A stretch of DNA of 44,868 bases from Candidatus Onthousia faecipullorum (GTDB taxonomy: Bacteria > Bacillota_I > Bacilli_A > RF39 > UBA660): positions 1 through 44,868 of the forward strand of contig DVKQ01000002.1 in NCBI GenBank assembly GCA_018715925.1. The letters run 5' to 3'. Shown piece after piece: positions 4,685-41,909 of this stretch; positions within the stretch are counted from its first letter, which is position 1, and each line of letters starts with the position of its first letter. The notes under the pieces were generated by a model that was given only the letters and a program-made list of their open reading frames with translations, did no database searches and was not told the DNA's origin. A program made the position numbers and the translations under genes.

Positions 4685-4698
4685 TTTTGTGGTAAACC
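4685..4698. repeat. arm-type repeat TTTTGTGGTAAACC (copy 1)
   Basis: The same 14-mer recurs at 39135..39148. Both copies lie just inside the prophage ends, so they are candidate integrase arm-binding sites. Confidence 0.4.
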
Positions 4699-4732
4699 AG
4701 TGATTTTTTACCTCTTTTTTTGCCGATTTTTA

Positions 4733-18697: not shown

Positions 18698-18788
18698 CTT
18701 CTCCACTTATCTCCGCTTTAGATGTGCTATTATTGTATTATGAAGAATTATAAAAGTTCTTCACACCAAATACCCTTTTTATTCTTTG

Positions 18789-18811
18789 AGAGCTAGAAAT
18801 AGCTCTTTTTT
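18789..18811 (+). terminator. rho-independent terminator separating the early/middle and late operons
   Basis: AGAGCTA-GAAA-TAGCTCT followed by TTTTTT. Confidence 0.75.
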
Positions 18812-18829
18812 GTGTTGGGAGAAGATGAT

Positions 18830-18910
18830 ATGGAACCGCAAGATTTAGCTTTAATATTTTCATTTATTCTGTTAATCATCATACTAACTTTTTGGGCTAG
18901 GGGTAAATAA
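18830..18910 (+). CDS. possible 26-aa hydrophobic peptide (MEPQDLALIFSFILLIIILTFWARGK)
   Basis: ATG lies 8 nt after GGGAG. It has a single TM-like segment with a basic C-terminus, and it lies between the terminator and the tRNA-like element. Confidence 0.25.
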   Translation: MEPQDLALIFSFILLIIILTFWARGK

Positions 18911-18913
18911 TAT

Positions 18914-18987
18914 CGCAGATGTAGTGTAGTAGTAGCACACGAGTCTCTTTAGCTCGTAGGGTGGTGCAATTCCAACATCTGCAACCA
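18914..18987 (+). tRNA. non-canonical tRNA-like gene, anticodon CUU, with initiator-tRNA-type acceptor end (C1xA72, G2:C71, C3:G70, A73, encoded CCA)
   Basis: Manual fold:
- acceptor C|GCAGAT / ATCTGC|A, followed by ACCA
- D stem GTGT/GCAC
- anticodon stem CGAGT/GCTCG with loop CTCTTTA
- T stem GGTGG/CCAAC (one mismatch) with loop TGCAATT
The connector, variable loop and T-loop are atypical. Confidence 0.4.
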
Positions 18988-19014
18988 AGAAAGCAGTTAA
19001 GGAGGTGGTATCGA

Positions 19015-19398
19015 AAGGAAGAGAAGAAGAAAATAGGCAGACCTTTAAAATTTCAAAGTGTCGAGGTCTTGCAAAAGAAAATAGATGCTTATTTTGATGA
19101 TGAAAACAATAAACCCTATACTGTTTGTGATTTGTGTGTATGGTTAGATTGTGATAGACAGACTCTATTAAATTATCAAGAAAAAGAAGAGTTTTTTGAC
19201 ACTATAAAAAGAGCTAAAACAAAAATTGAAGCTAGTATAGAAAAGGGAGCCTTATTGGGTGTCTTTAATCCTACATTTTCTATTTTTAATATGAAAAACA
19301 ACTTTGGTTGGCAAGATAAACAAGAAATAGATACCACTTCTTCAAATAGAATAGAAATTATAAACGATTTGCCAAGTGATATAGATGAAGATAAGTAG
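19015..19398 (+). CDS. terS: terminase small subunit; start codon uncertain (proposed AAG at 19015; the track start GTG at 18961 has no SD)
   Basis: ..KKKIGRPLKFQSVEVLQKKIDAYF....KPYTV.DLCVWLDCDRQTLLNY is a typical TerS HTH N-terminus. TAAGGAGGTGGT (18998-19009) is followed after 5 nt by an in-frame AAG. Confidence 0.7.
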   Translation, partial: KEEKKKIGRPLKFQSVEVLQKKIDAYFDDENNKPYTVCDLCVWLDCDRQTLLNYQEKEEFFDTIKRAKTKIEASIEKGALLGVFNPTFSIFNMKNNFGWQDKQEIDTTSSNRIEIINDLPSDIDEDK

Positions 19399-20749
19399 TC
19401 AGATAGCACCATCATTTAATAGAACTTTTAATAGCTATAAAACTCATCAAATCTATAATGGTGGTCGTGGTTCAACAAAAACATCTATGATTAGTTTAAA
19501 GATAGTTTATAACTGTCTAAACGAGAATAACTGTTCTGTAGTAGTTTTGAGAAAACATCAAAATCAGTTAAGAAAATCAGTATATAAAGAAATCAAAAGA
19601 GCATGTACTAGATTAGGATTGGTTGAAAACACTCATTACATAAGTACCGTATCGCCTATGGAAATAAAATTTCTACAAAACGGTAATGTTATTTATTTTG
19701 CTGGTGGAGATGATTTTGAAACTGTTAAAGGAACCATTGATGAAAATAAGCTAATTAAAATAGTATGGTTTGAAGAATTGACTGGTTGGGATAATTCAGA
19801 AGATATAGACCAAATAGTTGCTACATTTACCCGTGGTAATAATGATTGGTTTATGGCTTTATATTCGTATAATCCGCCTAAAAATAAATTTGCATGGATA
19901 AATAAGTGGTGCAATTCTATGAAATTAAGAGATGACTGCCTAGTTTCTGAAACAGATTACAGAACGGTACCAGAAGAATGGTTAGGCAAGCTGTTTATTG
20001 ATGAAGCTAAGAGAATGGAAAAATTTGATAACAAACGTTATCGTTGGATTTATTTAGGTGAAGTAATCGGAATGGAAGGTCTTATTTATAACCCTCAAAT
20101 GTTTGAGTATGTAGACAAGGATTACATAGAGCAAAACAAGTTAAGAATTCTTTATTTAGATTTTTCTGTTGATGGCGGACATCAAACAAGTGCTACTACT
20201 TGTGGGTGCTATGGACTAGCAAGTGATGGCTATTGGTATCTATTGGATACTTACTATTATAGTCCTAATGAAAAGCCTAAAAAGAAAGCACCTAGTGAGT
20301 TATCGAGAGATATCTTTAACTTTGAAATAGCCATGATTAAAATGTGGAAATGTGGCGAAGACAAAGAAACTATAGATAGTGCAGAAGGGGCCTTAAGAAA
20401 TCAGTTATATACTGACTATGGCAAAAGATTTCATCCAGTTAATAAAGGTAAGAATAAAGAAGAATTAATTGATTATTCACAGGCTTTTCTAGCAAAAGGA
20501 AAGTTTAGAGTATTAGATAATGACAATAATAAAATTTTCAAAAAAGAAAATGAAAATTATATGTGGAAAGAAGGAACTGTTGAAAAAGGCAAGCCTGAGC
20601 CTGATAAGACGGAAAAAGAATTTATTGGCGAAGAGCCTTATTACAATAGTTGGTCTAATGACTATAGTTATTACTATGCAGATCATACACAAGATGTTTT
20701 CCAATACTGGGTAAAAGATAATTTAAGCAAATTAGGAATAAAGGAGTAG
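19385..20749 (+). CDS. terL: terminase large subunit (PBSX/Terminase_3-like)
   Basis: Walker A-like NGGRGSTKTS, a C-terminal nuclease-type region, and overlap with terS. Confidence 0.85.
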   Translation: MKISSQIAPSFNRTFNSYKTHQIYNGGRGSTKTSMISLKIVYNCLNENNCSVVVLRKHQNQLRKSVYKEIKRACTRLGLVENTHYISTVSPMEIKFLQNGNVIYFAGGDDFETVKGTIDENKLIKIVWFEELTGWDNSEDIDQIVATFTRGNNDWFMALYSYNPPKNKFAWINKWCNSMKLRDDCLVSETDYRTVPEEWLGKLFIDEAKRMEKFDNKRYRWIYLGEVIGMEGLIYNPQMFEYVDKDYIEQNKLRILYLDFSVDGGHQTSATTCGCYGLASDGYWYLLDTYYYSPNEKPKKKAPSELSRDIFNFEIAMIKMWKCGEDKETIDSAEGALRNQLYTDYGKRFHPVNKGKNKEELIDYSQAFLAKGKFRVLDNDNNKIFKKENENYMWKEGTVEKGKPEPDKTEKEFIGEEPYYNSWSNDYSYYYADHTQDVFQYWVKDNLSKLGIKE

Positions 20750-20752
20750 ATT

Positions 20753-21139
20753 ATGAGAAAAAAAGAATTAATAGAGTTTCAAAAAGAATTAATGAAAAAA
20801 TTCGAAGAAAAATGCGACAAATGTATTTCTTTAGAAGAAACAATAACAAAACTAAATGATATAAATAAAGAAATTAATTTAAAATATATGGTATTACTTG
20901 CAAAATATAATAAACTATTAAAATCCACGTTAGATAATGAAACAAAAAATATTACTTATAATGGCAAATTGTATAAAATTAATGAAGTTAATCATTATCA
21001 AAAAACTGGAGAAATTGAAAGCATAGTAATAACTGCACATAATATTCCAGAAAAAGAGGGTTTAGTTAACTCTATGGGTAAAGTTTTTAAAGAAGCTTAT
21101 GATAGTATTAATGAAACGTTGTTTGGAAATAAAAAGTAG
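20753..21139 (+). CDS. hypothetical protein between terL and portal
   Basis: SD is AAAGGAG. The N-terminus is coiled-coil-like. Confidence 0.5.
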   Translation: MRKKELIEFQKELMKKFEEKCDKCISLEETITKLNDINKEINLKYMVLLAKYNKLLKSTLDNETKNITYNGKLYKINEVNHYQKTGEIESIVITAHNIPEKEGLVNSMGKVFKEAYDSINETLFGNKK

Positions 21140-21148
21140 GTGATTTAA

Positions 21149-22627
21149 AAGGGATTATATCAAGACATACAAAATAAATTAAGTAAAAAAGGAATTAACC
21201 TTGTTGTTGGAGATATTTACGACATGATGGCAATATGGAAGTCGTGGTATCGTGGCAACGTTAATGACTTCCACTACTTCACTATGAAAATGGCAGATGG
21301 AACTACGAAACAGTGCGAAAGATTAACAATGAATATGCCGAAAAAAGTATGTGAAGACTTTGCAAAATTATTATGGTCAGAAAAAGTACAAATAAAGCTT
21401 GATAAGAAGAAAAACACGGAAAGACTATTAGAAGTATTAGACAGTAAAGAAAACAACTTTAAAGTCAACTTTCCTAACTTTCTAGAACGTGTTTTTGCTT
21501 TAGGTACAGGAGTTACTGTAGAATATCGAAAAGATGATAAGACTTTAATCGATTATATAGATGGCGATATAGTTATTCCTTATAAATATACCAACAGTTA
21601 TATAAATGGCTTAATAACTGTTAGTAGATTTACAAAAGGAGCCGATAAAGATAAAAAATATTTTACTCATATAACTTACCATGAGTTTAAAGATAGTAAA
21701 TATACAAAACTAAACGAATTATATGAGTCAAACAATGAAACAACTTTAGGAGAAGAAATCAACTTTAACGAAAAGTTTCCTGATGTATTGGAATTTGAAG
21801 AGTTCGATACAGACAATCCTCACTTTCAAGTATGGGAGCCAGTTGTTGCTAATAACTTCGACACAGATAGCCCTATGGGTATATCTATATTTGCTAATCA
21901 GATAGATAAATTTAAGGCTATAGATACAGAGTATGATAGTTTTAATCGTGAATTTAGAACTGGTAAGAAAAGAGTTCTAATTAGTAGAGAGGCAGTAAAG
22001 AAACATTATGTACCAGATCCAGAAGAAGAAGGAAAAGTTAATTTAGTTAGTTATTTTGATAATAATGATGAGGTATATGTTGCTATTGCAGGAATGGAAG
22101 ACCAGCCTGTTAAAGAAATCGATTTTAATTTAAGATACCAAGAGCATATTAGTTCAATAAATGCACAGTTAAATTACATTAGTGCCGGTGTTGGCTTAGG
22201 CCAGAACTATTATAACTTTGATGGTCAAGGTGTTAAAACTGCTACTGAAGTTGTATCTGAAAATAGTGATACATATAGAACTAAGAAACATCACGAGTTA
22301 ATGGTTAATGACTGCTTATATGATTTAGTCAAAGCAATATGTGAGCTTGAAGATATTCCTTATAAATCAATTAATATAGTCTTTGATGACTCTATTATCG
22401 AAGATGAAAATGCACTAATTCAAAGAGGATTAGAACTATATCAAAGTAAGACTATTTCGCTAGAAAAGTTTATGAAGAAATATCTACACTATGAAGATAG
22501 TGAAATTCAAGAAGAAATAGCAAAAATTCAAAGTGAAAATAAGTTAGTTCAACCAGAAGGTATGGACTTTTTTGGAATGGAACAAGAAACAGAAGTCCAA
22601 GATGAAGAAGTAGTAGAGGAGGGATAG
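21149..22627 (+). CDS. portal protein (SPP1 Gp6-like family); proposed AAG start at 21149, first ATG at 21224
   Basis: AIWKSWYRGNVNDFHYF and overall length and acidic C-terminus fit this portal family. The frame is open from the AAG that follows AGGTGAT-TTAA. Confidence 0.8.
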   Translation, partial: KGLYQDIQNKLSKKGINLVVGDIYDMMAIWKSWYRGNVNDFHYFTMKMADGTTKQCERLTMNMPKKVCEDFAKLLWSEKVQIKLDKKKNTERLLEVLDSKENNFKVNFPNFLERVFALGTGVTVEYRKDDKTLIDYIDGDIVIPYKYTNSYINGLITVSRFTKGADKDKKYFTHITYHEFKDSKYTKLNELYESNNETTLGEEINFNEKFPDVLEFEEFDTDNPHFQVWEPVVANNFDTDSPMGISIFANQIDKFKAIDTEYDSFNREFRTGKKRVLISREAVKKHYVPDPEEEGKVNLVSYFDNNDEVYVAIAGMEDQPVKEIDFNLRYQEHISSINAQLNYISAGVGLGQNYYNFDGQGVKTATEVVSENSDTYRTKKHHELMVNDCLYDLVKAICELEDIPYKSINIVFDDSIIEDENALIQRGLELYQSKTISLEKFMKKYLHYEDSEIQEEIAKIQSENKLVQPEGMDFFGMEQETEVQDEEVVEEG

Positions 22628-22628
22628 A

Positions 22629-22841
22629 ATGAATTATAAGATAAGAATGTTAGATGAATTGCTCTATATTAGCAATAAAATTACTCGCTTGAATTGTTAT
22701 TTAGAAAACCGAATTATCAAAGAAAATGAGGGAAAAGAAGATTTAATGACAGAACAATTAAAGCATATGGAAGCATATAGAGAAATTCTTCAAGAGAGAT
22801 TAAGAAATGAATTAGTAGATATTTGTAGTGCATCTAATTAA
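22629..22841 (+). CDS. hypothetical protein
   Basis: SD is GAGGAGGGA. Confidence 0.5.
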   Translation: MNYKIRMLDELLYISNKITRLNCYLENRIIKENEGKEDLMTEQLKHMEAYREILQERLRNELVDICSASN

Positions 22842-22854
22842 GGAGTTGATATAA

Positions 22855-24606
22855 ATGTCTTTAAACGATTTAGAAGAACAAGTTGAGAGAATTTATATCG
22901 ATATGGAAAATGAATTGCTTTTGAATATTGCCAAAAAACTGTCTGCTGGTAAGCCTATGGAAGTAGACAAATGGGACGAAGTAAATCAGCAACCGTTAGT
23001 AGGCAGTGGCGAAGTAAATGAATGGCAATTACAGAGATTAAAAGAACTTAATGGTTTAAACGAAGAAAATGCAAAGATAATTGCCAAATATTCTGGTAAG
23101 ACCGTTGAAGAGGTAAATAAAGTCTTTGATAGAGCTAAAGAAATAGGTGTGACAAGAGATGAAACACTTATTCAAGAGGGAATTAAATTAGGAATACTTA
23201 ATGCAGTGGAGCCTGATACTGAAGAGTTGCTAGTTCGAAGCATTCTATCAAATGCAGTAGAAGAAATATTGACTACATTTAATAAGCAGAATAATAGCCT
23301 TTTAGCAAGTGCTGGAGATGAGTATAGGGATATAGTCAATAAAGTATCTTCCCAAGTTCTAGCAGGTACTAAAACCACTAATAAGGCCATGCAAGAAGCA
23401 GTAAGTCAGTTGGCAGAAAAAGGCTTAACTGGTTTTACTGCTAGAAATGGAGCAAGATGGAATCCAGAGGGGTATACAAAGATGGTTATTCGTACAAATA
23501 CACAGAATACTATTAACCGTATTCAAGACGAGAGAATACAAGCCTGTGGTGGCGATTTCATAGAAATTAGTTCGCATATAGGTGCTAGACCTTTGTGCGC
23601 TCAAGACCAAGGGCAAATATTTTCTTTGAGTGGTTATTCAGGATACATAGAAGATTTGGACGGTGGAAGAGTTAAAGTTAGACCGTGGAGTTCTTCAACT
23701 TATGGAAAACCTGCAGGAATACTTGGAATCAACTGTCGTCATTCAAGATATATGTTTGTTCCTGGACTGTCTAAAAAAAGAGAAATGGACTTTACCAAAA
23801 AAGAAAATGATAAAATTTATGCAGAAAGTCAAAGGCAACGTCAATACGAAAGAACGATTCGAAATAAAAAAAGAGAAATAGCAATGCTTAAACAAACTGG
23901 AGCAGAGCCTAGTTACATAAAGAGAAAACAAAATAGTTTAAGCAATACTAGAAAAGAATACCTGGAATTTTTAGATAAAACTGGTAGAACTAGAATAACA
24001 GCGAACGAATGGATAGGTAACACATCGTCAAGTCAGAAATCAAAAGTAATTAAGAAAAAAACAATTAAACAAAACAAAAATGAATATAAAAAATTAACTG
24101 TTACAGAGATAGAAAGAAGACAATCTTCAAGCGATGATGCATATAAAAAGTTCACTCTCTCAGAGAAGGAAGCTATTGATGAGTATTCAATGGGAGCTTA
24201 TCAAGATGTCAACGATTATTTAAATGGTAAATATCCAGATTATAAAATTGGAAAAGAAATCACAAAAGATATAGATAGTGCTATTTCAAAATACACACTA
24301 ACAGATAATATAGTTACATACAGAGGAACTGAGAAAAAATATTATGAAGGATTAACAATAGGAGATAAATTTTCTTTAAAAATGTATAGTAGTACTTCTT
24401 TAAATGAAAATATCGCAAAAACCTTTATGGAAGATAAAGAAAATGCTATAATGTTAGAAATTAGAGTTCCCAAAGGGACACCAAGTCTATATGTCGGTGA
24501 TAATAGTGCGTATGAATTTGAAGCAGAATTTCTTTTGGGAAGAGACTTGAGTTTTAAAGTTATTGATATTATTGATGATAGATTAATTGTGGAGGTTGTT
24601 AAATGA
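22855..24606 (+). CDS. MuF/SPP1-gp7-like minor head protein fused to a C-terminal mono-ADP-ribosyltransferase toxin domain
   Basis: The N-terminal two-thirds is head-morphogenesis-like (NTQNTINRIQDE, GARPLCAQDQGQIFS, INCRH). The C-terminus carries the R-S-E ART triad: VTYRGT, YSSTSL and EFEAEFLL (ExE). Confidence 0.8.
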   Translation: MSLNDLEEQVERIYIDMENELLLNIAKKLSAGKPMEVDKWDEVNQQPLVGSGEVNEWQLQRLKELNGLNEENAKIIAKYSGKTVEEVNKVFDRAKEIGVTRDETLIQEGIKLGILNAVEPDTEELLVRSILSNAVEEILTTFNKQNNSLLASAGDEYRDIVNKVSSQVLAGTKTTNKAMQEAVSQLAEKGLTGFTARNGARWNPEGYTKMVIRTNTQNTINRIQDERIQACGGDFIEISSHIGARPLCAQDQGQIFSLSGYSGYIEDLDGGRVKVRPWSSSTYGKPAGILGINCRHSRYMFVPGLSKKREMDFTKKENDKIYAESQRQRQYERTIRNKKREIAMLKQTGAEPSYIKRKQNSLSNTRKEYLEFLDKTGRTRITANEWIGNTSSSQKSKVIKKKTIKQNKNEYKKLTVTEIERRQSSSDDAYKKFTLSEKEAIDEYSMGAYQDVNDYLNGKYPDYKIGKEITKDIDSAISKYTLTDNIVTYRGTEKKYYEGLTIGDKFSLKMYSSTSLNENIAKTFMEDKENAIMLEIRVPKGTPSLYVGDNSAYEFEAEFLLGRDLSFKVIDIIDDRLIVEVVK

Positions 24607-24740
24607 TAAAATTAACAAAAAAGCAAAAAGAAATAAGAGACAATTATAAGAAAAAAACGGGAAAGGAAATGCCTCCGCCAAGAAAACTTAAAGACAGATG
24701 GGAAAAAGAAGAAATGATTATTATAAAAAAACAAAAATAG
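24603..24740 (+). CDS. 45-aa lysine-rich ORF coupled to the MuF-ART gene (possible immunity or accessory protein)
   Basis: ATGA overlap with the toxin stop, a strong SD (GGAGGTTGTTAA-ATG), and a terminator immediately after. It is not in the ORF track. Confidence 0.4.
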   Translation: MIKLTKKQKEIRDNYKKKTGKEMPPPRKLKDRWEKEEMIIIKKQK

Positions 24741-24741
24741 C

Positions 24742-24767
24742 AAGCACCAAATAAGGTGCTTTTATTA
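24742..24767 (+). terminator. rho-independent terminator
   Basis: AAGCACC-AAATAA-GGTGCTT followed by TTATT. Confidence 0.6.
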
Positions 24768-24851
24768 TGCACTACTTTATAGGTAGTGTGAAGAGTATTA
24801 TTCAGGGATATGAGGGCTGGATACTTTCCACAGTGCTTATAAAGCACTTGG

Positions 24852-24877
24852 GAACGTAGAAATACGTTCTTTTATTA
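24852..24877 (+). terminator. rho-independent terminator-like hairpin
   Basis: GAACGTA-GAAA-TACGTTC followed by TTTTATT. Confidence 0.55.
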
Positions 24878-24943
24878 TGTCCAACATAAAGACAATAAAG
24901 AATGGTTAAGTCCAACTTAATGACTTAAAAGAAGGGAGAATTT

Positions 24944-25471
24944 ATGGAACAAGAAAATGTTCAAAATGTTACAGAAGAAAAAGTAACTGAAAATACAGAA
25001 ACACAGACTGCAGAAGAAAAAGTGGAGAAAGCTTTTGCTACTCAAGAAGAATTTAATGAAGCTTTAAAAAAGGAAGTAGCTAGAAAAACTAGAAACGTAC
25101 CTAGTAAAGAAGAGTTAAAAGCTTTTAATGAGTGGAAAGAAAGTAAAAAAACTGAGACAGAGAAGTCTTTAGAAAAAGATAAGAGAATAGAAACTTTAGA
25201 AAAACAACTTGCTTATGCAGAGAACAAGTCGGTAGTGGCCAATGCTGGTGTTGATTCTAAATTTCAAAAGTTCGTTTTGTCAGAAGTTTCTGAGATTGAG
25301 GGAGACTTTGAAGATAATTTAAAAGATTATTTAAAAGAAAATCCTCAATACTTAGTTAGTAAAGTTGAAACACCTAAAACAAATGGTGTAGCAACTAAGA
25401 AAATTAGTAATGATGCCGAAGACGGGGTTACTGCTATTTTAAAAGCAAAACACCCTGATATTGATTTTTAG
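24944..25471 (+). CDS. scaffolding protein
   Basis: Acidic, helical and Glu/Lys-rich, and located immediately upstream of the capsid gene. Confidence 0.65.
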   Translation: MEQENVQNVTEEKVTENTETQTAEEKVEKAFATQEEFNEALKKEVARKTRNVPSKEELKAFNEWKESKKTETEKSLEKDKRIETLEKQLAYAENKSVVANAGVDSKFQKFVLSEVSEIEGDFEDNLKDYLKENPQYLVSKVETPKTNGVATKKISNDAEDGVTAILKAKHPDIDF

Positions 25472-25487
25472 AAGGAGAGTGATTTAA

Positions 25488-26624
25488 AAGGCAAATACTA
25501 TTAATACAAATGGTACTCATGAAAGACAAGAAAGATATGCTAGTCAAATCGTTAAATTAATGAGACCATACTTCAGAATTAGAAGTACATTTTCAAGAGA
25601 TTACGAAGGTAATCCAACAGCTGGAGCAGTTAAAGTCCCAGTAAGAAACATGGACGTAAATGTTCGTGATTACGATATTAAAAATGGTTTAGCATTAGAA
25701 CAAAGTGCTACAAACTATCTAAATATCCCTATCAATTTTAATAAAGGTATTAATGAGTTAATTGATGGATATGAAGCAGCAGCAGTTCCTGATAACTTAA
25801 TGGCTCAAAGAATGGAGAGCGCAGCTTATTCTTTAGCTAAAACATTTGAGGAAGATGCTATTAACGCATTAGTAAGTAATTCTACAGTATCTACTCAACC
25901 AGATGGAACTGTAGATAATATTTATATGAATATCGTTAAAGATATTGCTCAATTAGCTAAACGTGGTGTAGATAAGAATAGAATGTATGTTGCTGTATCT
26001 TACGCAACTGAAGCTTTATTACTTGCTAACCCAGTATATGCTAATACTTCATCACAAATTGGTGCAGAATTAGCTAGAAATGGTATTGTTAACAGAATAA
26101 ACGGTGTTAACATCATTACTCAAGACTTGGGAGAGACAGAAGACGGACAAGCAATTGAATATATTGTTTACGGTATTGACTGGACTCAAGCTATTGACGA
26201 GTGGATGGTTAACCCTGTTGTTGTTGACTTAACTACCGGTTCAAGCGAATATATTGGTGCTAGTGCATTAAAAGGACGTATGGTTTATGCTGATGCTGTA
26301 ACTGATAAAAACGCAGTTATTGTTAAGGCTAAAGTTGGTGTATCTGCAGTAGAAATTACACCAGTTGCTGGTTTATCTGGAACTTTAGCAGATTCTACTA
26401 AAGTAGCAGATTTAGCAAGTGTTGGTGGTAGTGGAACTGTAACTTATGCATTGCCTACTGGTGTAGCTGACAACGATAAATTTGAAATTAGTACTAACAC
26501 AGTAGTAACTAAAGACGGAACTACTGGAGCAGGTACTTATACTATCGTAGTTAATGCTACTGATACAGCTGATAATGAAGCTTCAGCAACTGCAACTATT
26601 AACGTAGCAGAAGCTAGTGAATAA
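25488..26624 (+). CDS. major capsid protein with C-terminal Ig-like decoration domain; proposed AAG start at 25488, first ATG at 25560
   Basis: Position after the scaffold, size and composition fit a capsid protein. The C-terminal ~90 aa (VTYALPTGV..FEISTNTVVTK..AGTYTIVVNATD) is Ig-like. The frame is open from the AAG after GAAGGAGAGTGAT-TTAA. Confidence 0.75.
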   Translation, partial: KANTINTNGTHERQERYASQIVKLMRPYFRIRSTFSRDYEGNPTAGAVKVPVRNMDVNVRDYDIKNGLALEQSATNYLNIPINFNKGINELIDGYEAAAVPDNLMAQRMESAAYSLAKTFEEDAINALVSNSTVSTQPDGTVDNIYMNIVKDIAQLAKRGVDKNRMYVAVSYATEALLLANPVYANTSSQIGAELARNGIVNRINGVNIITQDLGETEDGQAIEYIVYGIDWTQAIDEWMVNPVVVDLTTGSSEYIGASALKGRMVYADAVTDKNAVIVKAKVGVSAVEITPVAGLSGTLADSTKVADLASVGGSGTVTYALPTGVADNDKFEISTNTVVTKDGTTGAGTYTIVVNATDTADNEASATATINVAEASE

Positions 26625-26644
26625 GGTTAGAAAGGAGTTAGATT

Positions 26645-27007
26645 ATGGTTACAAAGGAAGAATATGAAGAATACTTTGGGCAGTCTGCTCCTTCTAATTT
26701 TTCAAGATTAGAATTTATTAGTTTGAATACAATTAAATCTATAATTACAAGACCTGTTCCTAAAGAGTCTTGTCCTTTTTATGAAGACTTTAAAAAGGCT
26801 ATTTTGGAACAAATTAATTATTATGATTTAAATTCAGACTTGATTACTAGTTCATCTTCTGGAAGTTATACGTTAGGTAGCTATTCAGAGGGCGGAAGTA
26901 GTGAAATAGAAACATCTAAAAGCATATCTAGGTTAAGTCCAGTTGCTTATGAAATATTACTAAATTGTGGACTTTTACAAAGTCAAATAGGAGGTTGTTG
27001 CTTATGA
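26645..27007 (+). CDS. putative head-tail connector protein
   Basis: Called from position in the neck module. SD is GAAAGGAG. Confidence 0.35.
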   Translation: MVTKEEYEEYFGQSAPSNFSRLEFISLNTIKSIITRPVPKESCPFYEDFKKAILEQINYYDLNSDLITSSSSGSYTLGSYSEGGSSEIETSKSISRLSPVAYEILLNCGLLQSQIGGCCL

Positions 27008-27162
27008 CAAAGTATAAAATGGGAGCAATTGTTAAAAATGTTCCAAAAGGCTCAGAAAAATGGTATAAACTTGCTGGTTGGAAGAAAATAGATTCTAAAA
27101 AGCAAGAAGCAAAGGAAGCTAAAGATGATAAAACCGATTCCGAAAAGACTACTACCACATAA
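27004..27162 (+). CDS. small basic/acidic 52-aa protein
   Basis: The ATG at 27004 lies behind AGGAGGTTG with an ATGA overlap. The track start at 26965 has no SD. Confidence 0.45.
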   Translation: MTKYKMGAIVKNVPKGSEKWYKLAGWKKIDSKKQEAKEAKDDKTDSEKTTTT

Positions 27163-27460
27163 TTGCACTTATAAAGAGTATTTAGGCAATACTGGAGAGG
27201 GTGATGAGTGGGGAGCAGATACTCCACTTAAATTTGTTAAAGTTGAAGAAAAAACACAGTTAAAAGTTACTTCAAACGGTCGTGAAATCGTTGGTAATGC
27301 TCGTTTATTTTACGATTTAACTAATTCTAGTGGTTTGTCTGATAAACCAGTTCAAAATAGCAAGATTATCTTTAAAGATAGAGAATATCGAGTAGTAGAT
27401 ACTGATGTTCTTTGTGGTGAAGAAGATAATCCTCATCACTACGAGGTAATGCTTAAGTGA
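27125..27460 (+). CDS. head-closure / minor capsid-type neck protein
   Basis: Position and size fit, and the C-terminal ..HHYEV.L is typical of head-tail adaptor families. Confidence 0.45.
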   Translation: MIKPIPKRLLPHNCTYKEYLGNTGEGDEWGADTPLKFVKVEEKTQLKVTSNGREIVGNARLFYDLTNSSGLSDKPVQNSKIIFKDREYRVVDTDVLCGEEDNPHHYEVMLK

Positions 27461-27807
27461 AAAAATTTAAAAATGCTAAAGATGCTTTTGAGTGGGCTAA
27501 AGAAGTTATCGAAAATGGTTGTGTAACAGCAGAAGAAGTAATTGCTGAAGAAATCTACAAAGATTCAAATGAGTTCACATATCGAGATACTGGAGATATG
27601 TATAAATCAGGAGAAATGCATAGTAGATTTAAAGAAGGCATAATTACTGAACGAACACCTTATGTAAGAAGAAGATATTACGAGGGTGGTAAAGCTGGAG
27701 CAGGAAATAGAAAAGCACAACCTAGATGGTTTGAAAAAACTGTTGCTAAAAATAAAGATAAATATTCTAAACAAGCTCAAAAAGTAATCGATATGCAGAA
27801 AGGATAA
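27457..27807 (+). CDS. neck / tail-completion protein
   Basis: GTG start follows GAGGT. Called from position in the neck module. Confidence 0.4.
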   Translation: MKKFKNAKDAFEWAKEVIENGCVTAEEVIAEEIYKDSNEFTYRDTGDMYKSGEMHSRFKEGIITERTPYVRRRYYEGGKAGAGNRKAQPRWFEKTVAKNKDKYSKQAQKVIDMQKG

Positions 27808-27808
27808 T

Positions 27809-28195
27809 ATGAATACAGAAAGTTTAATTACATTATTAAGAAATGAAATTGAAAAGACTGGTTATAAATGTTATTCGCCAGACTTACCTCAAAATCTTGA
27901 AAAAATAGTTGCTATTTCGTTAGGAGAAGGTACTAATGAACGTTCTTTAAATAAAGATATTCTATACTCTAGAATACCTTTTTATTTGCTTATTAGAGGC
28001 ACTTCTAATGATACAGAGACCAGAGGTATTGCTGATACTATTTTCAAGCAATTAGACCATAAAACAGACCTAGAAAATGACAATTTAAGAGTAATTTTAA
28101 TAAGTTGCAATATGCCAAACTATGCTTTTAGAGATGAAAATCAAAGAATACATTACAACATTAATTGTAATATTCAAGTCGAGTGGAAGGAGTGA
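27809..28195 (+). CDS. neck / tail-terminator-type protein
   Basis: Lies directly before the major tail gene. Confidence 0.4.
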   Translation: MNTESLITLLRNEIEKTGYKCYSPDLPQNLEKIVAISLGEGTNERSLNKDILYSRIPFYLLIRGTSNDTETRGIADTIFKQLDHKTDLENDNLRVILISCNMPNYAFRDENQRIHYNINCNIQVEWKE

Positions 28196-28200
28196 TTTAA

Positions 28201-28650
28201 AAGGCACAATACGAAAGTTCAGTTAAACAATTTAAAGTTCAATTTGATATTTCAGAGGAAGAACCAGCTGATTATCAAGATTTAATCGCTTTAACAATGT
28301 CATACGATCAAGGAGAAACCCTTGATACTTGGCAAGATTTATATAATTTCTTATCTAATAACGTAAAAACTGGATTAGACCCAACATGGTCAGTATCTGT
28401 TAAATTAGATAAATCAAGTCCAGTTTGTCAGTTTATTTTAGCTAAGGAATTTGCAGTAGGAGCAGAAGCAACTGCTAAATGTAAAATTATCAATTTACTT
28501 AAAGGTACAAGTGGTAAGCAAATAGACTTCACTGCTACTTTAAGTTCAATTACATACGAAGCTACTGCCGAAGAAGTATTACAAGTAGACTTTGACCTTA
28601 AAGTTTACGATAATTCTACATTTGAAGAAACAGACTATACAACAGGGTAG
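28201..28650 (+). CDS. major tail protein; proposed AAG start at 28201, first ATG at 28297
   Basis: It precedes the chaperone and tape-measure genes and has a strong downstream hairpin. The frame is open from the AAG after GGAAGGAGTGAT-TTAA. The ATG at 28297 has no SD and would give a truncated 117-aa product. Confidence 0.7.
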   Translation, partial: KAQYESSVKQFKVQFDISEEEPADYQDLIALTMSYDQGETLDTWQDLYNFLSNNVKTGLDPTWSVSVKLDKSSPVCQFILAKEFAVGAEATAKCKIINLLKGTSGKQIDFTATLSSITYEATAEEVLQVDFDLKVYDNSTFEETDYTTG

Positions 28651-28676
28651 GCTTTTAGTCTGCCCTTTATTTTTTT
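28645..28676 (+). terminator. terminator/attenuator hairpin after the major tail gene
   Basis: GGGTAGGC-TTTTA-GTCTGCCC (two G.U pairs) followed by TTTATTTTTTT. Confidence 0.55.
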
Positions 28677-28687
28677 AGGAGGATTAA

Positions 28688-29128
28688 ATGTTAAAAATTA
28701 CAAAAAATAAATATGAAATCGAAGAAACAATTCAAATTACAGAAAATAAAGAAGGAAAAGAAGAAGTTTTGCTAGAAATACCCATGCAAATAACATCTGA
28801 TGAATTATTAAAATTAAAAGAAATTTTATTTGGTTATACAAACAAAAATATATCAAAATATCAAAATTCAACTGATGAAGAAAAAAAACAACTAGAAAAT
28901 AATGCAGAAAAAGAAATAAATAATCATAATGAAGAAATAGCAGATATCTGTTTCAAAGATAATAAAGAAAAAATCAAAGAAATAGCTGGAGAATACAAGT
29001 ATGAAGAACTTCTTGGTGATATTAAGGGTTTTTTATTAGATTTTTTTATCAAAAAACAGATACAACCAATGAGTACAACGATTACAGACCTTACGAAGAT
29101 TATGAGCAACTTTCGTGCGTTGAAATAA
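28688..29128 (+). CDS. tail assembly chaperone (gpG-like, zero-frame product)
   Basis: Lies between the major tail and tape-measure genes. It is acidic and contains a slippery site near the 3' end. Confidence 0.65.
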   Translation: MLKITKNKYEIEETIQITENKEGKEEVLLEIPMQITSDELLKLKEILFGYTNKNISKYQNSTDEEKKQLENNAEKEINNHNEEIADICFKDNKEKIKEIAGEYKYEELLGDIKGFLLDFFIKKQIQPMSTTITDLTKIMSNFRALK

Positions 29129-29655
29129 ATGGCAAACAGTACAAATTAGATTTATCTTTTAGAAATGTTCTTAAAATTTTTAGATTATTTGAAAATAATT
29201 CGCCTTTCAAATTAGAAAAAACAGCAGAAATTCTAGGAATAAAACAATCAAATGCTTATGTGATAAATGAAATTGCTAATTATTTATTTGGAAAGAAAAA
29301 AGGTAATAGTCATAAAAAAGAAAAAGTATTTGATGTAAATTTAGACTATAAATACTATTATGCTGATTTTTATAAATTAGGTATTGACTTAAATAAAGCA
29401 GATATAGACTGGTGGACCTTTAATTCATTGCTTGAATCTATCATAATAGATGAAAATTCTACTATGTATAAAGTGATATCTTATCGCACTTATGAAAAAC
29501 CATCAAAAAATATAAAAGTTCAAGAAGAAAAAGAACATAAATTTAGAATGTCTATGAAAAGGAAATATGCTTTGCCAAATAGAATAACCCCAGATAAAGC
29601 ATTAGAAAAGCTATGGAACTATGTTGAAAAAAAGGCAGGTGAGAATAAAGAATGA
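28688..29655 (+). CDS. tail assembly chaperone -1 frameshift fusion (gpGT-like; Gp15-type C-terminal part)
   Basis: The -1 frame is open from 29026 to 29655 with no start codon before the GTG at 29260. VEINGKQYKLDLSFRNVLKI is coding-like. Slippery T_TTT_TTA lies at 29029 and T_TTT_TTT at 29041. Confidence 0.6.
29029..29035 (+). promoter_or_regulatory. candidate -1 programmed ribosomal frameshift heptamer (T TTT TTA)
   Basis: It has X_XXY_YYZ geometry in the zero frame of ORF 28688. The -1 frame opens at 29026. Confidence 0.5.
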
Positions 29656-31678
29656 TTACTTAAAACTTGATATTCAAATGTTTGCAGATGGCGAAATTTC
29701 TTACAAGATAACTCTTGATAGTAATGGTGCTATAAAGAGTATGGAAAAATTAGATAAAAATGCTGAAAAAATTGATAAGCAAAGTAATAAATTGAGTGGA
29801 ACTTTTTCAAAAGTAGGAAGTGTTGGTGCTAAAGCTTTTAGAAGTACTGCAATTGCTGTTGGAGGAGTAGCCTCTGCATTAGCCGGATTAATAGGTTATG
29901 GTGCTAAATTTAATGCAGAAATAGAGCAGTATCAAACATCGTTTGAAGTAATGACGGGTTCAGCTGAAGAAGCTTCTAAACTTGTTGAAGATTTAAAGAA
30001 AATGGGAGCAGAAACTCCTTTTGAATTGTCAGATTTAGCACAGACTACTCAACTATTGATGAACTATGGTTTTACAGCAGAAGAAGCCAAAAATAGATTG
30101 AAAATGTTAGGAGACATTTCTCAAGGCTCTGCTGATAAAATGAATAGAATTGCTATGGCTTACGGGCAAATGTCGTCAGCTGGTAAAGTTTCATTAGAGG
30201 ATGTTAAACAAATGATTGAAGCTGGATTTAATCCACTTCAAGAAATAAGTGAAACAACAGGTGAGTCTATGTCTAGCCTTTATGATAGAATTTCAAAAGG
30301 CACTTTGTCTATTGACGAAATTACTGCTTCAATGCAAAGGTCTACAGCAGAAGGTGGAAAGTACTTCCAGTCAATGGAAAAACAGTCACAAACTGTTAGT
30401 GGACAAATATCTACTTTGCAAGATAACTTTAAAAGTTTAGCGGGTACTTTGTCTAATGGATTTAGTGATTCACTAGCTACTGAAATATTACCCAAAATTA
30501 ACAATGTACTTCAAGAATTAAATACAACGTTTGAAGAAAATGGAATTGAAGGGTTTGTAGATAAACTTGGAGAAGAACTAGCAAATGGAATTACATCCAT
30601 AGCTAATAAAGCGCCTGATTTTGTAAATGTAGGTATTAAAGTAATTGATTCGCTAGTTAATGGTTTAGTCGATAATATGCCTGTTATTGCGAACGGGTTA
30701 GCAAAAGTAGCAGTAGAATTAGTGAATGGCATAATTAAAATAATGCCTACAATTGCTCAAGGGGTAATTACAGGTATACAAACACTATTGACTTCATTAA
30801 CACCACAGATACCAATTATAGTACAAAATCTGCTAGATGGAATTGTTCAAATAGCAACTTCTGTAGCTCAAGCATTCCCTACATTATTTCCTATGATTAT
30901 AGAAGCGATATTAGGGCTTATACCTGTTTTATTAGAGAATTTACCTCAATTTATACAAGCAGGAATTCAAATGACCATAGGTTTAATGAATGGTCTTATA
31001 AATGCAATCCCTACTTTACTAAATTCTTTGCCAGAAATAATAAGTGCTATAATTTCAGGTTTAATGGGTGCTATACCTCAGCTTATTATGTTAGGTCCAC
31101 AATTAGTTATTGGTTTGATTCAAGGATTATTAAATGCTCTTCCTAGTTTAATAACATTAGGACCTAAGTTAGTGTTAGGAATAGTAGATGGAATCATTGA
31201 TGGAATTTCTAATATGATTAATGTTGGTAAAGATTTAATTAAAGGATTATGGGATGGTATTACTGGCAGTCTTGACTGGATAAAGAAGAAAATTAAAGGT
31301 TGGGTTGGCAACGTCTTAGACTTTATTAAAGGTCTATTCGGTATACACTCTCCATCAACAGAATTTGCATACTTTGGTCGTATGAACGTCTTAGGTTTAG
31401 AAGAAGGCATGGAAGATAATATTCCTGATTTGAACAAGACTATTGATAGAACTATTGCTTATGAAGCAACAGGCTTAGATTATTTAGCAAACGGATTTGA
31501 TAACTATTCGGGAACCATTTCTAATGGTGTATTAGCAAATGCTAACTTTAATCAACCGATTTATGTAACAGTAAATGCTGATTTGGACGTTAATAAATTT
31601 GGTAAAGCATTTGTAAGAGATATCAAGACATTTAGTGGTGGAGCTAAAAATGCTTATAACTATGGTGGTGGTAAATAA
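29648..31678 (+). CDS. tape measure protein; start uncertain (ATG 29621 / GTG 29639 / AAG 29648 / ATG 29678)
   Basis: Long, helical and Gly/Ala/Ile-rich, with LDIQMFADG near the N-terminus. AGGTGAG-AATA-AAG at 29637-29650 has the same geometry as the other AAG sites. Confidence 0.75.
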   Translation, partial: KNDYLKLDIQMFADGEISYKITLDSNGAIKSMEKLDKNAEKIDKQSNKLSGTFSKVGSVGAKAFRSTAIAVGGVASALAGLIGYGAKFNAEIEQYQTSFEVMTGSAEEASKLVEDLKKMGAETPFELSDLAQTTQLLMNYGFTAEEAKNRLKMLGDISQGSADKMNRIAMAYGQMSSAGKVSLEDVKQMIEAGFNPLQEISETTGESMSSLYDRISKGTLSIDEITASMQRSTAEGGKYFQSMEKQSQTVSGQISTLQDNFKSLAGTLSNGFSDSLATEILPKINNVLQELNTTFEENGIEGFVDKLGEELANGITSIANKAPDFVNVGIKVIDSLVNGLVDNMPVIANGLAKVAVELVNGIIKIMPTIAQGVITGIQTLLTSLTPQIPIIVQNLLDGIVQIATSVAQAFPTLFPMIIEAILGLIPVLLENLPQFIQAGIQMTIGLMNGLINAIPTLLNSLPEIISAIISGLMGAIPQLIMLGPQLVIGLIQGLLNALPSLITLGPKLVLGIVDGIIDGISNMINVGKDLIKGLWDGITGSLDWIKKKIKGWVGNVLDFIKGLFGIHSPSTEFAYFGRMNVLGLEEGMEDNIPDLNKTIDRTIAYEATGLDYLANGFDNYSGTISNGVLANANFNQPIYVTVNADLDVNKFGKAFVRDIKTFSGGAKNAYNYGGGK

Positions 31679-35455: not shown

Positions 35456-35797
35456 ATGAGTAATAGTGTGCTTAAAGATAAAGACGAGAAAATATTGAAC
35501 CCAAAAATTCCAAGATATGAAAAATTTAAAAGACAGTTTGAAAGTGGAGAAATATTAACTAATCAAATGACCGATGGACAAATTGGAGGTATAACAGGAG
35601 CTTACTATAATTTGACATTTAAAAAAAGTTACAATACTGTACCTAAGATTCTTTTAGAGCCTAAAACTAAAGTTGATAATATGGGGTTTGTTCAAACACT
35701 TGTTGAAAATTTAAGCACAACAGGGTGCAGAATATGGATAAATTCTCAACCACACTCAAATAATTATAGTGTTATGTATTTCATATTCGAAGAATGA
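35456..35797 (+). CDS. fibre/receptor-binding-like cassette 1 (113 aa)
   Basis: SD is AAGAGGTGGG. The N-terminus MSNSVLKDKDEKILNPKIPRYE is shared with the two downstream ORFs, while the C-terminus is unrelated. Confidence 0.55.
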   Translation: MSNSVLKDKDEKILNPKIPRYEKFKRQFESGEILTNQMTDGQIGGITGAYYNLTFKKSYNTVPKILLEPKTKVDNMGFVQTLVENLSTTGCRIWINSQPHSNNYSVMYFIFEE

Positions 35798-35831
35798 GTA
35801 TAACTCATAGTTAAGCTAAAAAGCGAAATAT

Positions 35832-36236
35832 GTGAATGAAGTATTGAAAGATAAAAACGGAAATATATTGAACCCTAAAATTCCAAGATACGAATACAAT
35901 TTATATACAAATGAAGAACCTATTAAAACAGGACGCAAAATAAATGGCAAAAATGAATATGTAAAAAGGGTATCTATTCCTCAATTACCAAATAATGGTA
36001 GTTTAGAAATAGGCACTGGTTTGAACATTAACGAAATAAAAGTAATTGATTTAAAAGGTTTAGCTTATAGAAGTTCAGACAACACATATATTCCGCTACC
36101 ATTTATTAGCATGGCTGGAATAAATATTGGTCTTAACACAAAAGTGATAGATAATATATTGAACATATTAATTGAAACTAGTAGTGATAGGACTAATTTT
36201 ACTGGTTGGGCAGAAGTTAGTTTTATATATAATTGA
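35832..36236 (+). CDS. fibre/receptor-binding-like cassette 2 (134 aa)
   Basis: GTG start with no SD. N-terminus NEVLKDKNGNILNPKIPRYE and a divergent C-terminus. Confidence 0.45.
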   Translation: MNEVLKDKNGNILNPKIPRYEYNLYTNEEPIKTGRKINGKNEYVKRVSIPQLPNNGSLEIGTGLNINEIKVIDLKGLAYRSSDNTYIPLPFISMAGINIGLNTKVIDNILNILIETSSDRTNFTGWAEVSFIYN

Positions 36237-36247
36237 GAGAGAATTAA
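36235..36247. repeat. 13-bp inverted repeat, right copy (GAGAGAGAATTAA)
   Basis: Perfect reverse complement of 35426..35438. Confidence 0.8.
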
Positions 36248-36259
36248 ATAGCCGTTTAT

Positions 36260-36667
36260 ATGGCAAATAATGTATTAAAAGATAAAGATAATAATATATT
36301 AAATCCTAAAATTCCACGATACGAAAATCTTAAAAATTATTCAGAGGAAGAGCAACTTGTTGGTAATTATCTTAGTAGACCATTATATAGAAAAGTTGTA
36401 GAATTTGGTGCTTTTCCGAGTAACGGCCAAAGAACAGTAAATCATAATATATCAGATTTAGATGACATAATGTGGTTTAATTACTGTTGGTTTGATACTT
36501 CTGACCATAAATGGTTTAGTGGACCAAGAGTTGATAGCTCTTCTGTTATTTGTAAAGTTGCAGTTAATGACACATCGTTAATTATTGAAGGTTTAGGTAA
36601 TGTTGCCTGGGCTGATAGAACAATTAAAGGAAAATGTACAATTTATTATCATAAAACGACAGATTAA
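36260..36667 (+). CDS. fibre/receptor-binding-like cassette 3 (135 aa)
   Basis: ATG with no SD. N-terminus MANNVLKDKDNNILNPKIPRYE and a divergent C-terminus. Confidence 0.45.
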   Translation: MANNVLKDKDNNILNPKIPRYENLKNYSEEEQLVGNYLSRPLYRKVVEFGAFPSNGQRTVNHNISDLDDIMWFNYCWFDTSDHKWFSGPRVDSSSVICKVAVNDTSLIIEGLGNVAWADRTIKGKCTIYYHKTTD

Positions 36668-39134: not shown

Positions 39135-39148
39135 TTTTGTGGTAAACC
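39135..39148. repeat. arm-type repeat TTTTGTGGTAAACC (copy 2)
   Basis: Identical to 4685..4698. Confidence 0.4.
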
Positions 39149-39193
39149 TCAAATGTTTTTAGTTGTTTCTAACTATTAGTACCTCTCAAACAT

Positions 39194-39233: not shown

Positions 39234-39248
39234 TGGTAGCCTGTACGG
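39234..39248. repeat. attR core
   Basis: TGGTAGCCTGTACGG is identical to 4632..4646 and forms the 3' end of the tRNA. Confidence 0.8.
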
Positions 39249-39310
39249 GTTTTGAACCCGTGAATACGAGCTTGAGAGGCGCGCGTGTTAAACCACTTCA
39301 CCAACAGGCC
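39234..39310 (-). tRNA. tRNA, folded by hand as tRNA-Glu (anticodon CUC)
   Basis: Minus-strand sequence: GGCCTGT TG GTG.AAGTGGTTTAA.CAC G CGCGC CTCTCAA GCTCG TATTC ACGGG TTCAAAA CCCGT ACAGGCT A CCA. It closely resembles B. subtilis tRNA-Glu in architecture, with one C/T mismatch in the anticodon stem. Confidence 0.7.
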
Positions 39311-41854: not shown

Positions 41855-41909
41855 TTTTAAAAAAAACTAGCAGTGTGGTACAATAAATAAAGAAAGAGTG
41901 GTTAGTAAG

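Follow-up and report, generated by a model that had tools for sequence, protein, structure and literature searches.

Start codons of the late genes

In the stretch of Candidatus Onthousia faecipullorum DNA analysed here (contig DVKQ01000002.1, assembly GCA_018715925.1; 44,868 nucleotides, called the window below; G+C content 29%), a prophage raises the question of how its major virion proteins are initiated, given that their genes present AAG where a Shine-Dalgarno (SD) sequence calls for a start codon. An earlier examination of the same DNA (the sequence-only reading) had proposed that a tRNA-like element with the anticodon CUU, which comes first in the operon for packaging, head and tail that starts near 18.9 kb, is an initiator paired with late genes starting at AAG. 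Covariation, invariant ends and the recurrence of the pairing in independent lineages support this core claim, and on comparison of the sequences we put at about 80% the probability that tRNA(CUU) is a dedicated phage-encoded initiator for the AAG-start genes.

The whole window was scanned for in-frame codons near the starts of all open reading frames (ORFs) of at least 60 codons, and the upstream pairing to the 16S anti-SD was scored. AAG was the best-placed codon in five late-gene ORFs, at 19015, 21149, 25488, 28201 and 29648, with SD energies of -12.9 to -17.8 kcal/mol. The best canonical candidate in the same frames reached -1.8 to -6.4 kcal/mol, and the downstream ATGs -1.6 to -6.4 kcal/mol. 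The tRNA and the five genes are as follows.

18914-18987, plus strand: initiator-like tRNA(CUU), from ARAGORN, Rfam RF00005 and covariation; anticodon 18947-18949, loop CUCUUUA, encoded CCA
18999-19398, plus strand: terS (small terminase), including the SD AAGGAGGTGGT at 18999-19009; start slot AAG 19015-19017; SD -17.8 kcal/mol; Pfam GP3_package
21149-22627, plus strand: portal protein (SPP1 Gp6-like); AAG 21149 right after an in-frame TAA; SD GTAGGTGAT, -12.9 kcal/mol
25488-26624, plus strand: major capsid protein; AAG 25488; SD -16.4 kcal/mol; PHROG 267, major head protein
28201-28650, plus strand: putative major tail protein, assigned by its position between the connector genes and the tail chaperone; AAG 28201; SD -15.6 kcal/mol
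29648-31678, plus strand: tape measure protein; probable AAG 29648; SD -14.3 kcal/mol; Pfam TMP_3

For terS, portal, capsid and tail the scan bears out the original observation that no ATG, GTG or TTG stands where the SD demands one. In SD strength the AAG genes surpass 47 canonical phage genes (mean -15.4 vs -11.6 kcal/mol; Mann-Whitney p = 0.0017). In the portal, capsid and major tail genes the open frame begins with the AAG itself, an in-frame TAA immediately preceding it, and the first ATG follows 25, 24 and 32 codons later, respectively (Met codons at 21224, 25560 and 28297), which confirms the open frames of 24-32 codons reported before. The 13-mer GTGATTTAAAAGG occurs exactly three times in the window, at 21140, 25479 and 28192, and the canonical-start sites at 13494, 14958, 15186, 35150 and 39420 share the same SD-spacer geometry; both details of the sequence-only reading proved exact on checking.

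The terS AAG sits 27 nt past the CCA of the tRNA, and the only canonical codons upstream of it are two GTGs within the tRNA gene; numbered from this AAG, the GP3_package domain begins at residue 8. In the capsid gene the codons after the slot, GCA AAT, align with the ATG-GCA-AAT of canonical-start relatives. Its predicted N-terminus is (f)K-ANTINTNGTHER from the AAG and M-RPYFR... from the downstream Met. The major tail candidate has no Pfam or PHROG match. Lysine is encoded in the window by AAA in 70-78% and by AAG in 22-30% of cases, and the start slot is never AAA; AAG makes up 23% of Lys codons in the late genes and 22% in host genes, that is, it is not enriched. An AAG at 41907 in the host polA gene also ties for best, and was left out of the count because the adjacent ATG 41910 uses the same SD.

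The tRNA at the head of the late operon

ARAGORN labels 18914-18987 (plus strand) as tRNA-Lys(CTT), and the RF00005 model matches 18915-18983 with 41 bits (gathering score 29), which puts its register one base inward of ARAGORN's. With ARAGORN and Infernal/Rfam both positive and the cloverleaf covarying in 16 homologues, the element previously called tRNA-like is a real tRNA(CUU).

The covariation analysis used an alignment of 16 distinct tRNA homologues from TerL relatives, with 500 shuffles as the null. Cloverleaf pairing holds in 96.9% of cells, compensatory change is seen in 10 pairs, and 0/500 shuffles reach the observed value; the signal is lost once partner columns are slid by 1-3. C1 and A72 are invariant and mismatched, whereas the acceptor pairs 4:69 and 6:67 covary. 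The formyltransferase determinants G2:C71, C3:G70 and A73 are all present and invariant, so that the ends singled out earlier in the window copy extend to every homologue, and the same is true of CCA, G30:C40 and U31.G39. The pair 29:41 is G:C in 10 and A:U in 6 homologues. In other lineages the initiator-type 1:72 mismatch takes the form G1xA72 or A1xA72.

The tRNA carries CUU in place of the CAU anticodon of tRNAfMet. It also departs from an elongator tRNA-Lys, with C1xA72 instead of a Watson-Crick 1:72 pair and U37 instead of a purine (t6A); EF-Tu binding needs the Watson-Crick pair at 1:72. The identity elements of lysyl-tRNA synthetase (LysRS), an anticodon YUU (here CUU) and the discriminator A73, are present. 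Position 37 is a purine in almost all tRNAs, and we observed U37 in most of the variant loops (CUCUUUA, CUCCUUA, CUUAUUA), with A37 kept in a minority. U31.G39 is invariant in the tRNAs of the TerL clade and mostly common to the CAU copies of sister phages described below; in loci found by pattern it was imposed by the search pattern.

Two body types occur among the homologues, a textbook tRNAfMet-like cloverleaf of 75-77 nt and the window type (type I). L037 represents the former, a 77-nt canonical cloverleaf with a GAGC/GCTC D stem (A11:U24) whose minimum-energy fold is the cloverleaf with C1 unpaired. Such relatives match classical tRNAfMet (that of B. subtilis) in 77-nt architecture, A11:U24 D arm, variable loop AGGTC and T loop. 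The D-stem pair A11:U24 is found in 7/16 homologues (L037, L064, L027, L002, L036, L007 and L019); the window type has U11:A24 (alignment pair 12-26: UA 9, AU 7). In the window type the 5' acceptor strand is longer by one base, the variable and T region is shortened and the T stem has 4 bp, so that the copy can be read in two registers. The extra base and the shortened region account for the disagreement in register between ARAGORN and Infernal, and the register with C1xA72 is the conserved one because both body types keep identical ends. ARAGORN misses the window-type tRNA in L001, L038-L042, L045 and L061, about half of the relatives' copies, where the covariance model gives 92-95 bits.

Anticodon and slot codon in TerL relatives

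A TerL search yielded 31 loci from IMG/VR and 31 from GTDB genomes. Since ARAGORN alone was unreliable, the tRNA was located in them with a regular expression (regex) and a covariance model built from the 16 distinct copies. We compared the slots of terS, portal, capsid, tail and tape measure, counting as canonical any ATG, GTG or TTG 4-13 nt from the SD anchor, with the following result.

Loci with tRNA(CUU), n=17: AAG in 58/58 slots
Locus with tRNA(CCU), n=1 (L027, 92.7% TerL identity): AGG in 5/5 slots
Loci with tRNA(CAU), n=4: canonical starts in 11/11 slots
Loci without such a tRNA, n=29: canonical starts in 57/58 slots

The expectation that AAG at these sites would co-occur with tRNA(CUU), and canonical starts with its absence, was thus met cleanly in related prophages (58/58 vs 57/58).

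The close relatives (72-98% TerL identity) are metagenome-assembled genomes (MAGs) of uncultured gut Bacillota, labelled Bacilli, 'Tenericutes' or Candidatus Coprosoma. All of them that have the region upstream of TerL on the contig, except L044, carry the tRNA approximately 435-475 nt before TerL, directly before terS, starting with CGC[AG]G and ending with GCAACCA. Matches to the covariance model (78-95 bits) are restricted to these close-relative loci and include every AAG or AGG relative with the upstream region. In L044 (75.7% TerL identity) neither the regex nor the covariance model finds a tRNA, and the starts are GTG for terS and portal and ATG for capsid and tail. The terS slot is AAG in all CUU relatives where it could be aligned, AGG in L027 and GTG in L044; the portal slot is AAG, AGG or GTG, tracking the tRNA; and the tape measure slot is AGG in L027 and AAG in the CUU relatives. 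In L062, where the tRNA region is off the contig, the portal and capsid slots are AGG. Every group of loci retains ATG for TerL, minor capsid protein 2 and scaffold. Relatives differ in the spacer ahead of the slot (ttaa, taca, atta, atga, ctaa), the slot codon staying constant, and the residues after it align with the Met-Ala-Asn... of canonical-start relatives.

Two side observations concern the history of the pairing. L027 and L062 have more than 90% TerL identity to the window, yet their key differs (AGG vs AAG) at every aligned slot (five and two, respectively), which implies replacement of the tRNA together with a coordinated change of start codons; L027 differs from the window in tRNA body type too. 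Sister phages of Clostridia (62-70% TerL identity; L005, L009, L013, L022, L054 and L063) carry a tRNA(CAU) approximately 650-1900 nt upstream of TerL, with U1:A72, A73, the loop CUCAUAA and, in most (L013 differs), U31.G39, and their late genes start with ATG, an arrangement that may be ancestral to the system.

Other phage lineages and other anticodons

IMG/VR was searched with a DNA pattern that left the anticodon free and fixed the anticodon arm (with U31.G39), the T loop and GCAACCA. Among the matches listed, the anticodons were CAT in at least 94, CCT in at least 14, CTT in at least 7 and TAT in at least 4, with one chance match. Restricted patterns gave 29 contigs in which position 35 is not A and 6 contigs with a DAT anticodon, and a scan of metagenomes gave 45 stretches, approximately 16 with CUU and 19 with CCU.

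We then tallied, without bias towards any codon, the non-canonical SD-placed codons in these tRNA-anchored loci. Among the IMG/VR matches listed, CUU loci gave AAG 64 times (runner-up codon 4), CCU loci gave AGG 14 times (runner-up 2), UAU loci gave ATA in 10/10, and at CAU loci no codon was enriched. The metagenome loci agree, with AAG in 15/20 for CUU and AGG as the top codon for CCU. In L087 (tRNA UAU, G1xA72) the genes starting with ATA are terS, a portal and a major head protein, both from other families than those of the window, and one for a 169-aa protein belonging to a PHROG family of unknown function; AGG starts were found for the portals of L139 and L182 and for TerL in L136. From these assignments, unrelated morphogenesis modules share the device, mostly in packaging and head genes.

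Six further loci (L193, L198, L246 and L250 from IMG/VR, and L197 and L225) have C1xA72 and GCAACCA tRNAs with the anticodons GUU, ACU or GCA. Some 38 nt beyond the GUU tRNA, an SD and AAC open an ORF of 333 codons, about 30 of which precede the first Met; with L193 as the lead, GUU/AAC may be a fourth key. Two other searches were uninformative: megablast of 18800-29700 against GenBank phages gave no match, and the exact 17-mer of the anticodon arm hit mostly unrelated coding sequence in IMG/VR (L033-L035).

Proposed mechanism and role

We propose that the prophage tRNA descended from a bacterial tRNAfMet by a change of the anticodon from CAU to CUU and came to be the first element of the packaging and morphogenesis operon. 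Freed from the operon transcript, it would most likely receive lysine from the host LysRS, given that this enzyme has U35 and A73 as its main identity elements. Elongation would be closed to it by the conserved C1xA72 mismatch, and in the ribosomal P site it would initiate at AAG by full codon-anticodon pairing, like engineered anticodon-mutant initiators in E. coli. Sister phages would run the same design with CCU/AGG and UAU/ATA. P-site use, lysine charging, formylation state and biological role are what we infer from the sequences; the presence of the cognate codon in the start slot lends indirect support to initiation in the P site with IF2.

AAG and AGG belong to the class of codons that are not near-cognate to AUG, having a middle-position mismatch with CAU. 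With the native machinery of E. coli, such codons initiate at approximately 0.01-1% of the AUG level (bioRxiv 10.1101/063800), and an initiator tRNA with the anticodon CUA initiates at its cognate UAG at 50-60% of the AUG level (bioRxiv 10.1101/524249). This difference between weak native initiation and strong initiation by an anticodon-matched tRNA also speaks for a dedicated initiator here.

A simple evolutionary route can be suggested, since phages often carry tRNA(CAU) copies with the same ends, and the sister phages of Clostridia have them in the equivalent place: a redundant copy would change its anticodon and the start codons would then convert singly. CUU, CCU and UAU are each one mutation from CAU, as AAG, AGG and ATA are each one from ATG, and the pair U36:A1 is kept by all.

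As to role, the leading idea is a lock or threshold on virion production, which takes up roughly two fifths of the probability that we assign to the mechanism. The tRNA is probably the first product of late transcription, because it lies shortly past the terminator at 18788-18807 and 27 nt before terS. To make the five nucleating or major virion proteins, both the mRNA and the tRNA of one late transcript would be needed, so that low-level read-through in the lysogen would yield almost nothing, in parallel to what has been proposed for stop-codon recoding (bioRxiv 10.1101/2021.08.26.457843). Another possible role is to hinder the functional exchange of genes among phages whose keys differ. The complete account, in which temperate phages of gut Bacillota have evolved orthogonal initiation by CUU, CCU and UAU (possibly GUU) initiators that place (formyl-)Lys, Arg or Ile at private AAG, AGG or ATA starts, with close relatives holding different key-lock pairs that act as lock and exchange barrier, has in our estimate slightly better than even odds. 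If true, it would be the first natural reassignment of a start codon by a dedicated initiator tRNA, and the first routine non-methionine initiation.

Weighing of the evidence

Several points weigh against this account. The initiator hallmark of three consecutive anticodon-stem G:C pairs (29:41, 30:40 and 31:39) is missing, the stem of the window tRNA being A29:U41, G30:C40 and U31.G39, and these three pairs are considered crucial for P-site binding (bioRxiv 10.1101/524249). The window copy is atypical, with an 8-layer acceptor stem, a 4-bp T stem that includes a G.A mismatch, and U11:A24; it lacks the G18G19 and T54-Psi55-C56 consensus, and alone it folds best as a rod (-26.1 kcal/mol; cloverleaf -19.3 kcal/mol). 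Lysine on an initiator tRNA is reportedly a poor substrate of the E. coli formyltransferase, according to work of the RajBhandary laboratory. The tape measure gene, earlier named as a possible fifth member, is the weaker case: its SD favours AAG 29648 (-14.3 kcal/mol), and its frame has an upstream ATG at 29621 (-3.3 kcal/mol) and GTG at 29639, both poorly placed relative to an SD, which leave this start less certain than the other four. The remaining late genes (TerL, scaffold, connectors, lysis) still start with ATG. Nor is the translational gate on lytic development that the sequence-only reading proposed compelling as a timer, since the tRNA heads, and is co-transcribed with, the operon to be gated, and a simple temporal gate does not follow automatically. 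Finally, the hosts are uncultured gut Bacillota seen solely as MAGs.

The same private-initiator mechanism could serve another purpose, namely escape from a host defence or toxin that hits the host initiator tRNA, such as a VapC-type anticodon-loop nuclease. The key virion proteins might then be produced even once initiation has been shut down. Changes in the anticodon loop are known to let phage tRNAs evade anticodon nucleases, and VapC toxins target tRNAfMet (PMC10264068). The anticodon arm of every variant departs from that of classical tRNAfMet (U31.G39 throughout, U37 in most), and the switch between AAG and AGG at more than 90% TerL identity is of a kind typical of conflict systems. Escape would nevertheless be incomplete, because most late genes (TerL, scaffold, connectors, baseplate and lysis) start with ATG and would stay blocked, and we consider this purpose unlikely. 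It is also conceivable, at a distinctly low probability, that initiation at AAG is real and the tRNA is charged with methionine or another non-lysine amino acid, or works unformylated, in which case the proteins would still begin with Met. The derivation of the tRNA body from tRNAfMet speaks for methionine. Methionyl-tRNA synthetase, however, depends on the CAU anticodon, above all on A35, and the synthetases for lysine, arginine and isoleucine read positions 35, 36 and A73. U36 and A73 are retained with each of the three variant anticodons, in agreement with charging by the synthetase that matches.

That the tRNA is an ordinary elongator tRNA-Lys(CUU) for the supply of AAG codons, the genes starting at the downstream ATGs or weakly at AAG with the host initiator, we regard as very improbable, and covariation largely refutes it. 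ARAGORN does call a tRNA-Lys, phage tRNAs often serve codon supply, and in-frame ATGs are available downstream. On the other side stand the invariant 1:72 mismatch, the lack of AAG enrichment in the late genes, the feeble SDs of the downstream ATGs, and a slot codon that tracks the anticodon (AAG, AGG, ATA) and is never AAA. The alignment of the post-slot residues with Met-Ala-Asn... and the terS domain beginning at residue 8 likewise place the start at the slot, and initiation at non-near-cognate codons, at most 1% of AUG in E. coli (bioRxiv 10.1101/063800), does not suffice to make a major capsid protein. Sequencing or assembly errors, or the decayed start codons of a defective prophage, would explain the AAG slots with next to no probability: only the unusualness of the pattern suggests them, the same pattern recurs in dozens of independent assemblies from several studies and animals (IMG/VR, GTDB genomes, ENA and JGI metagenomes), the ORFs remain intact, and decay would not bring about the same change five times along with a matching tRNA.

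Some narrower explanations were tried and rejected. A systematic AATGG-to-AAAGG sequencing error is at odds with the normal occurrence of AATGG elsewhere in the window (e.g. near 25528). Initiation at the GTG of GTG-ATT-TAA-AAG with read-through of the stop fails because terS has this GTG in another frame and the relatives differ in their spacers. Frameshifting applies only to the tail chaperone pair, and codon supplementation by the tRNA was dismissed on the AAG usage of the late genes.

Comparison with known systems

To our knowledge, all known cellular and viral translation systems initiate with a tRNA that has a CAU anticodon, and, within a limited coverage of the literature, no initiator tRNA with another anticodon and matching start codons is known from nature, the nearest things being laboratory constructs and the suppressor tRNAs of phages. 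The phage tRNA resembles bacterial tRNAfMet in C1xA72, G2:C71, C3:G70, A73, CCA and a CUCNNNA-like anticodon loop. It differs in the anticodon (CUU, or CCU and UAU in relatives), in having one or two of the three anticodon-stem G:C pairs, in the invariant U31.G39, in mostly U37, in being phage-encoded at the head of a late operon and, in the window copy, in a rearranged acceptor and T architecture. Engineered initiators offer a close parallel, since there too tRNAfMet, once its anticodon is changed, initiates at the non-AUG codon that pairs with it; the RajBhandary and Schulman laboratories are said to have made the amber initiator metY-CUA and Val, Phe, Ile, Lys and Gln variants, with the amino acid set by the new anticodon. 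Whereas those are laboratory constructs, the phage system is natural, conserved, diversified (AAG, AGG, ATA) and tied to specific genes.

Natural non-AUG starts (GUG, UUG, the AUU of infC, mitochondrial AUA and AUU) share the non-AUG codon behind an SD, but rely on wobble or near-cognate pairing by CAU, unlike the present case, in which a dedicated cognate tRNA co-occurs. In phages that recode stop codons, suppressor tRNAs are found and the recoded codons lie preferentially in late and structural genes, which has been proposed to coordinate late expression and suppress mis-expression (bioRxiv 10.1101/2021.08.26.457843). The two systems are alike in that a phage tRNA alters the meaning of a codon in late and structural genes; stop recoding acts in elongation and termination at in-frame stops, and here initiation at sense codons would be affected. 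The hallmarks of stop recoding are absent from the window: its late ORFs are open under table 11, and its only tRNAs are the CUU tRNA and a host tRNA-Glu(CUC), with no suppressor. Phage tRNAs for codon supply or nuclease evasion (PMC10264068) are likewise phage-borne, with anticodon loops that differ from those of host tRNAs, but they keep their decoding identity and serve elongation, whereas here the anticodon itself is changed and the matching codon stands in the start slot.

If the mechanism is true, it would be a new way to regulate or privatise gene expression and a natural counterpart of the synthetic 'orthogonal initiation' of E. coli. The parts are small, a tRNA of 74-77 nt and an SD-AAG junction, and the natural variants would be ready-made orthogonal pairs of initiator and start codon for synthetic biology. 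There would be consequences for annotation as well. Gene callers truncate terS, portal, capsid, tail and tape measure or miss their N-termini, and tRNA finders report an ordinary tRNA-Lys or tRNA-Arg or miss the tRNA, so that standard annotation would overlook the tRNA besides the gene starts, because ARAGORN fails on window-type copies.

Prophage context and neighbouring genes

The features that frame the late operon are given below.

4.7-39.2 kb (approximately 34 kb): prophage, between direct repeats
4685-4709 and 39135-39159: direct repeat with the 14-nt core TTTTGTGGTAAACC, bracketing the integrase end and the lysis end
4733-5728, minus strand: integrase
18788-18807, plus strand: intrinsic-terminator-like hairpin and T-run upstream of the tRNA, marking the end of the early/regulatory module
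39234-39310, minus strand: host tRNA-Glu(CUC), approximately 75 nt outside the right repeat
41.9-44.5 kb: host polA, among the flanking host genes

The direct repeats at 4685 and 39135 are likely attL and attR. The early region encodes a DnaB-like helicase, an HNH endonuclease and a DNA methylase, and no formyltransferase, synthetase or initiation factor of the phage came up when the early and neighbouring genes were searched against Pfam and PHROGs. Scanning for sigma-70 promoters near the tRNA turned up no signal above background. The hairpin and T-run of many relatives directly abut 'ATAT' and C1 of the tRNA. In the window a 26-codon hydrophobic mini-ORF (MEPQDLALIFSFILLIIILTFWARGK) lies between terminator and tRNA, at 18830-18910, ending 3 nt before C1; a similar mini-ORF is present in L001, L038 and L040, and the terminator abuts the tRNA directly in other relatives.

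Three further loci deserve mention. The tail assembly chaperone pair (28688-29655) consists of an ORF at 28688-29128 overlapped by a -1 frame, open from 29026 to 29655, without a start of its own; the slippery sequence T_TTT_TTA at 29029-29035 in the overlap is the usual programmed frameshift and not an AAG start. At 35456-36667 there are three tandem paralogous ORFs (113-135 aa) with a common 60-nt N-terminal repeat at 80-82% identity, two of them almost without an SD. The gene at 22855-24606 encodes a minor capsid protein 2 (Phage_min_cap2) with a fused C-terminal ADP-ribosyltransferase exoenzyme domain, a fusion which suggests that a toxin-like enzyme may be packaged in the virion.

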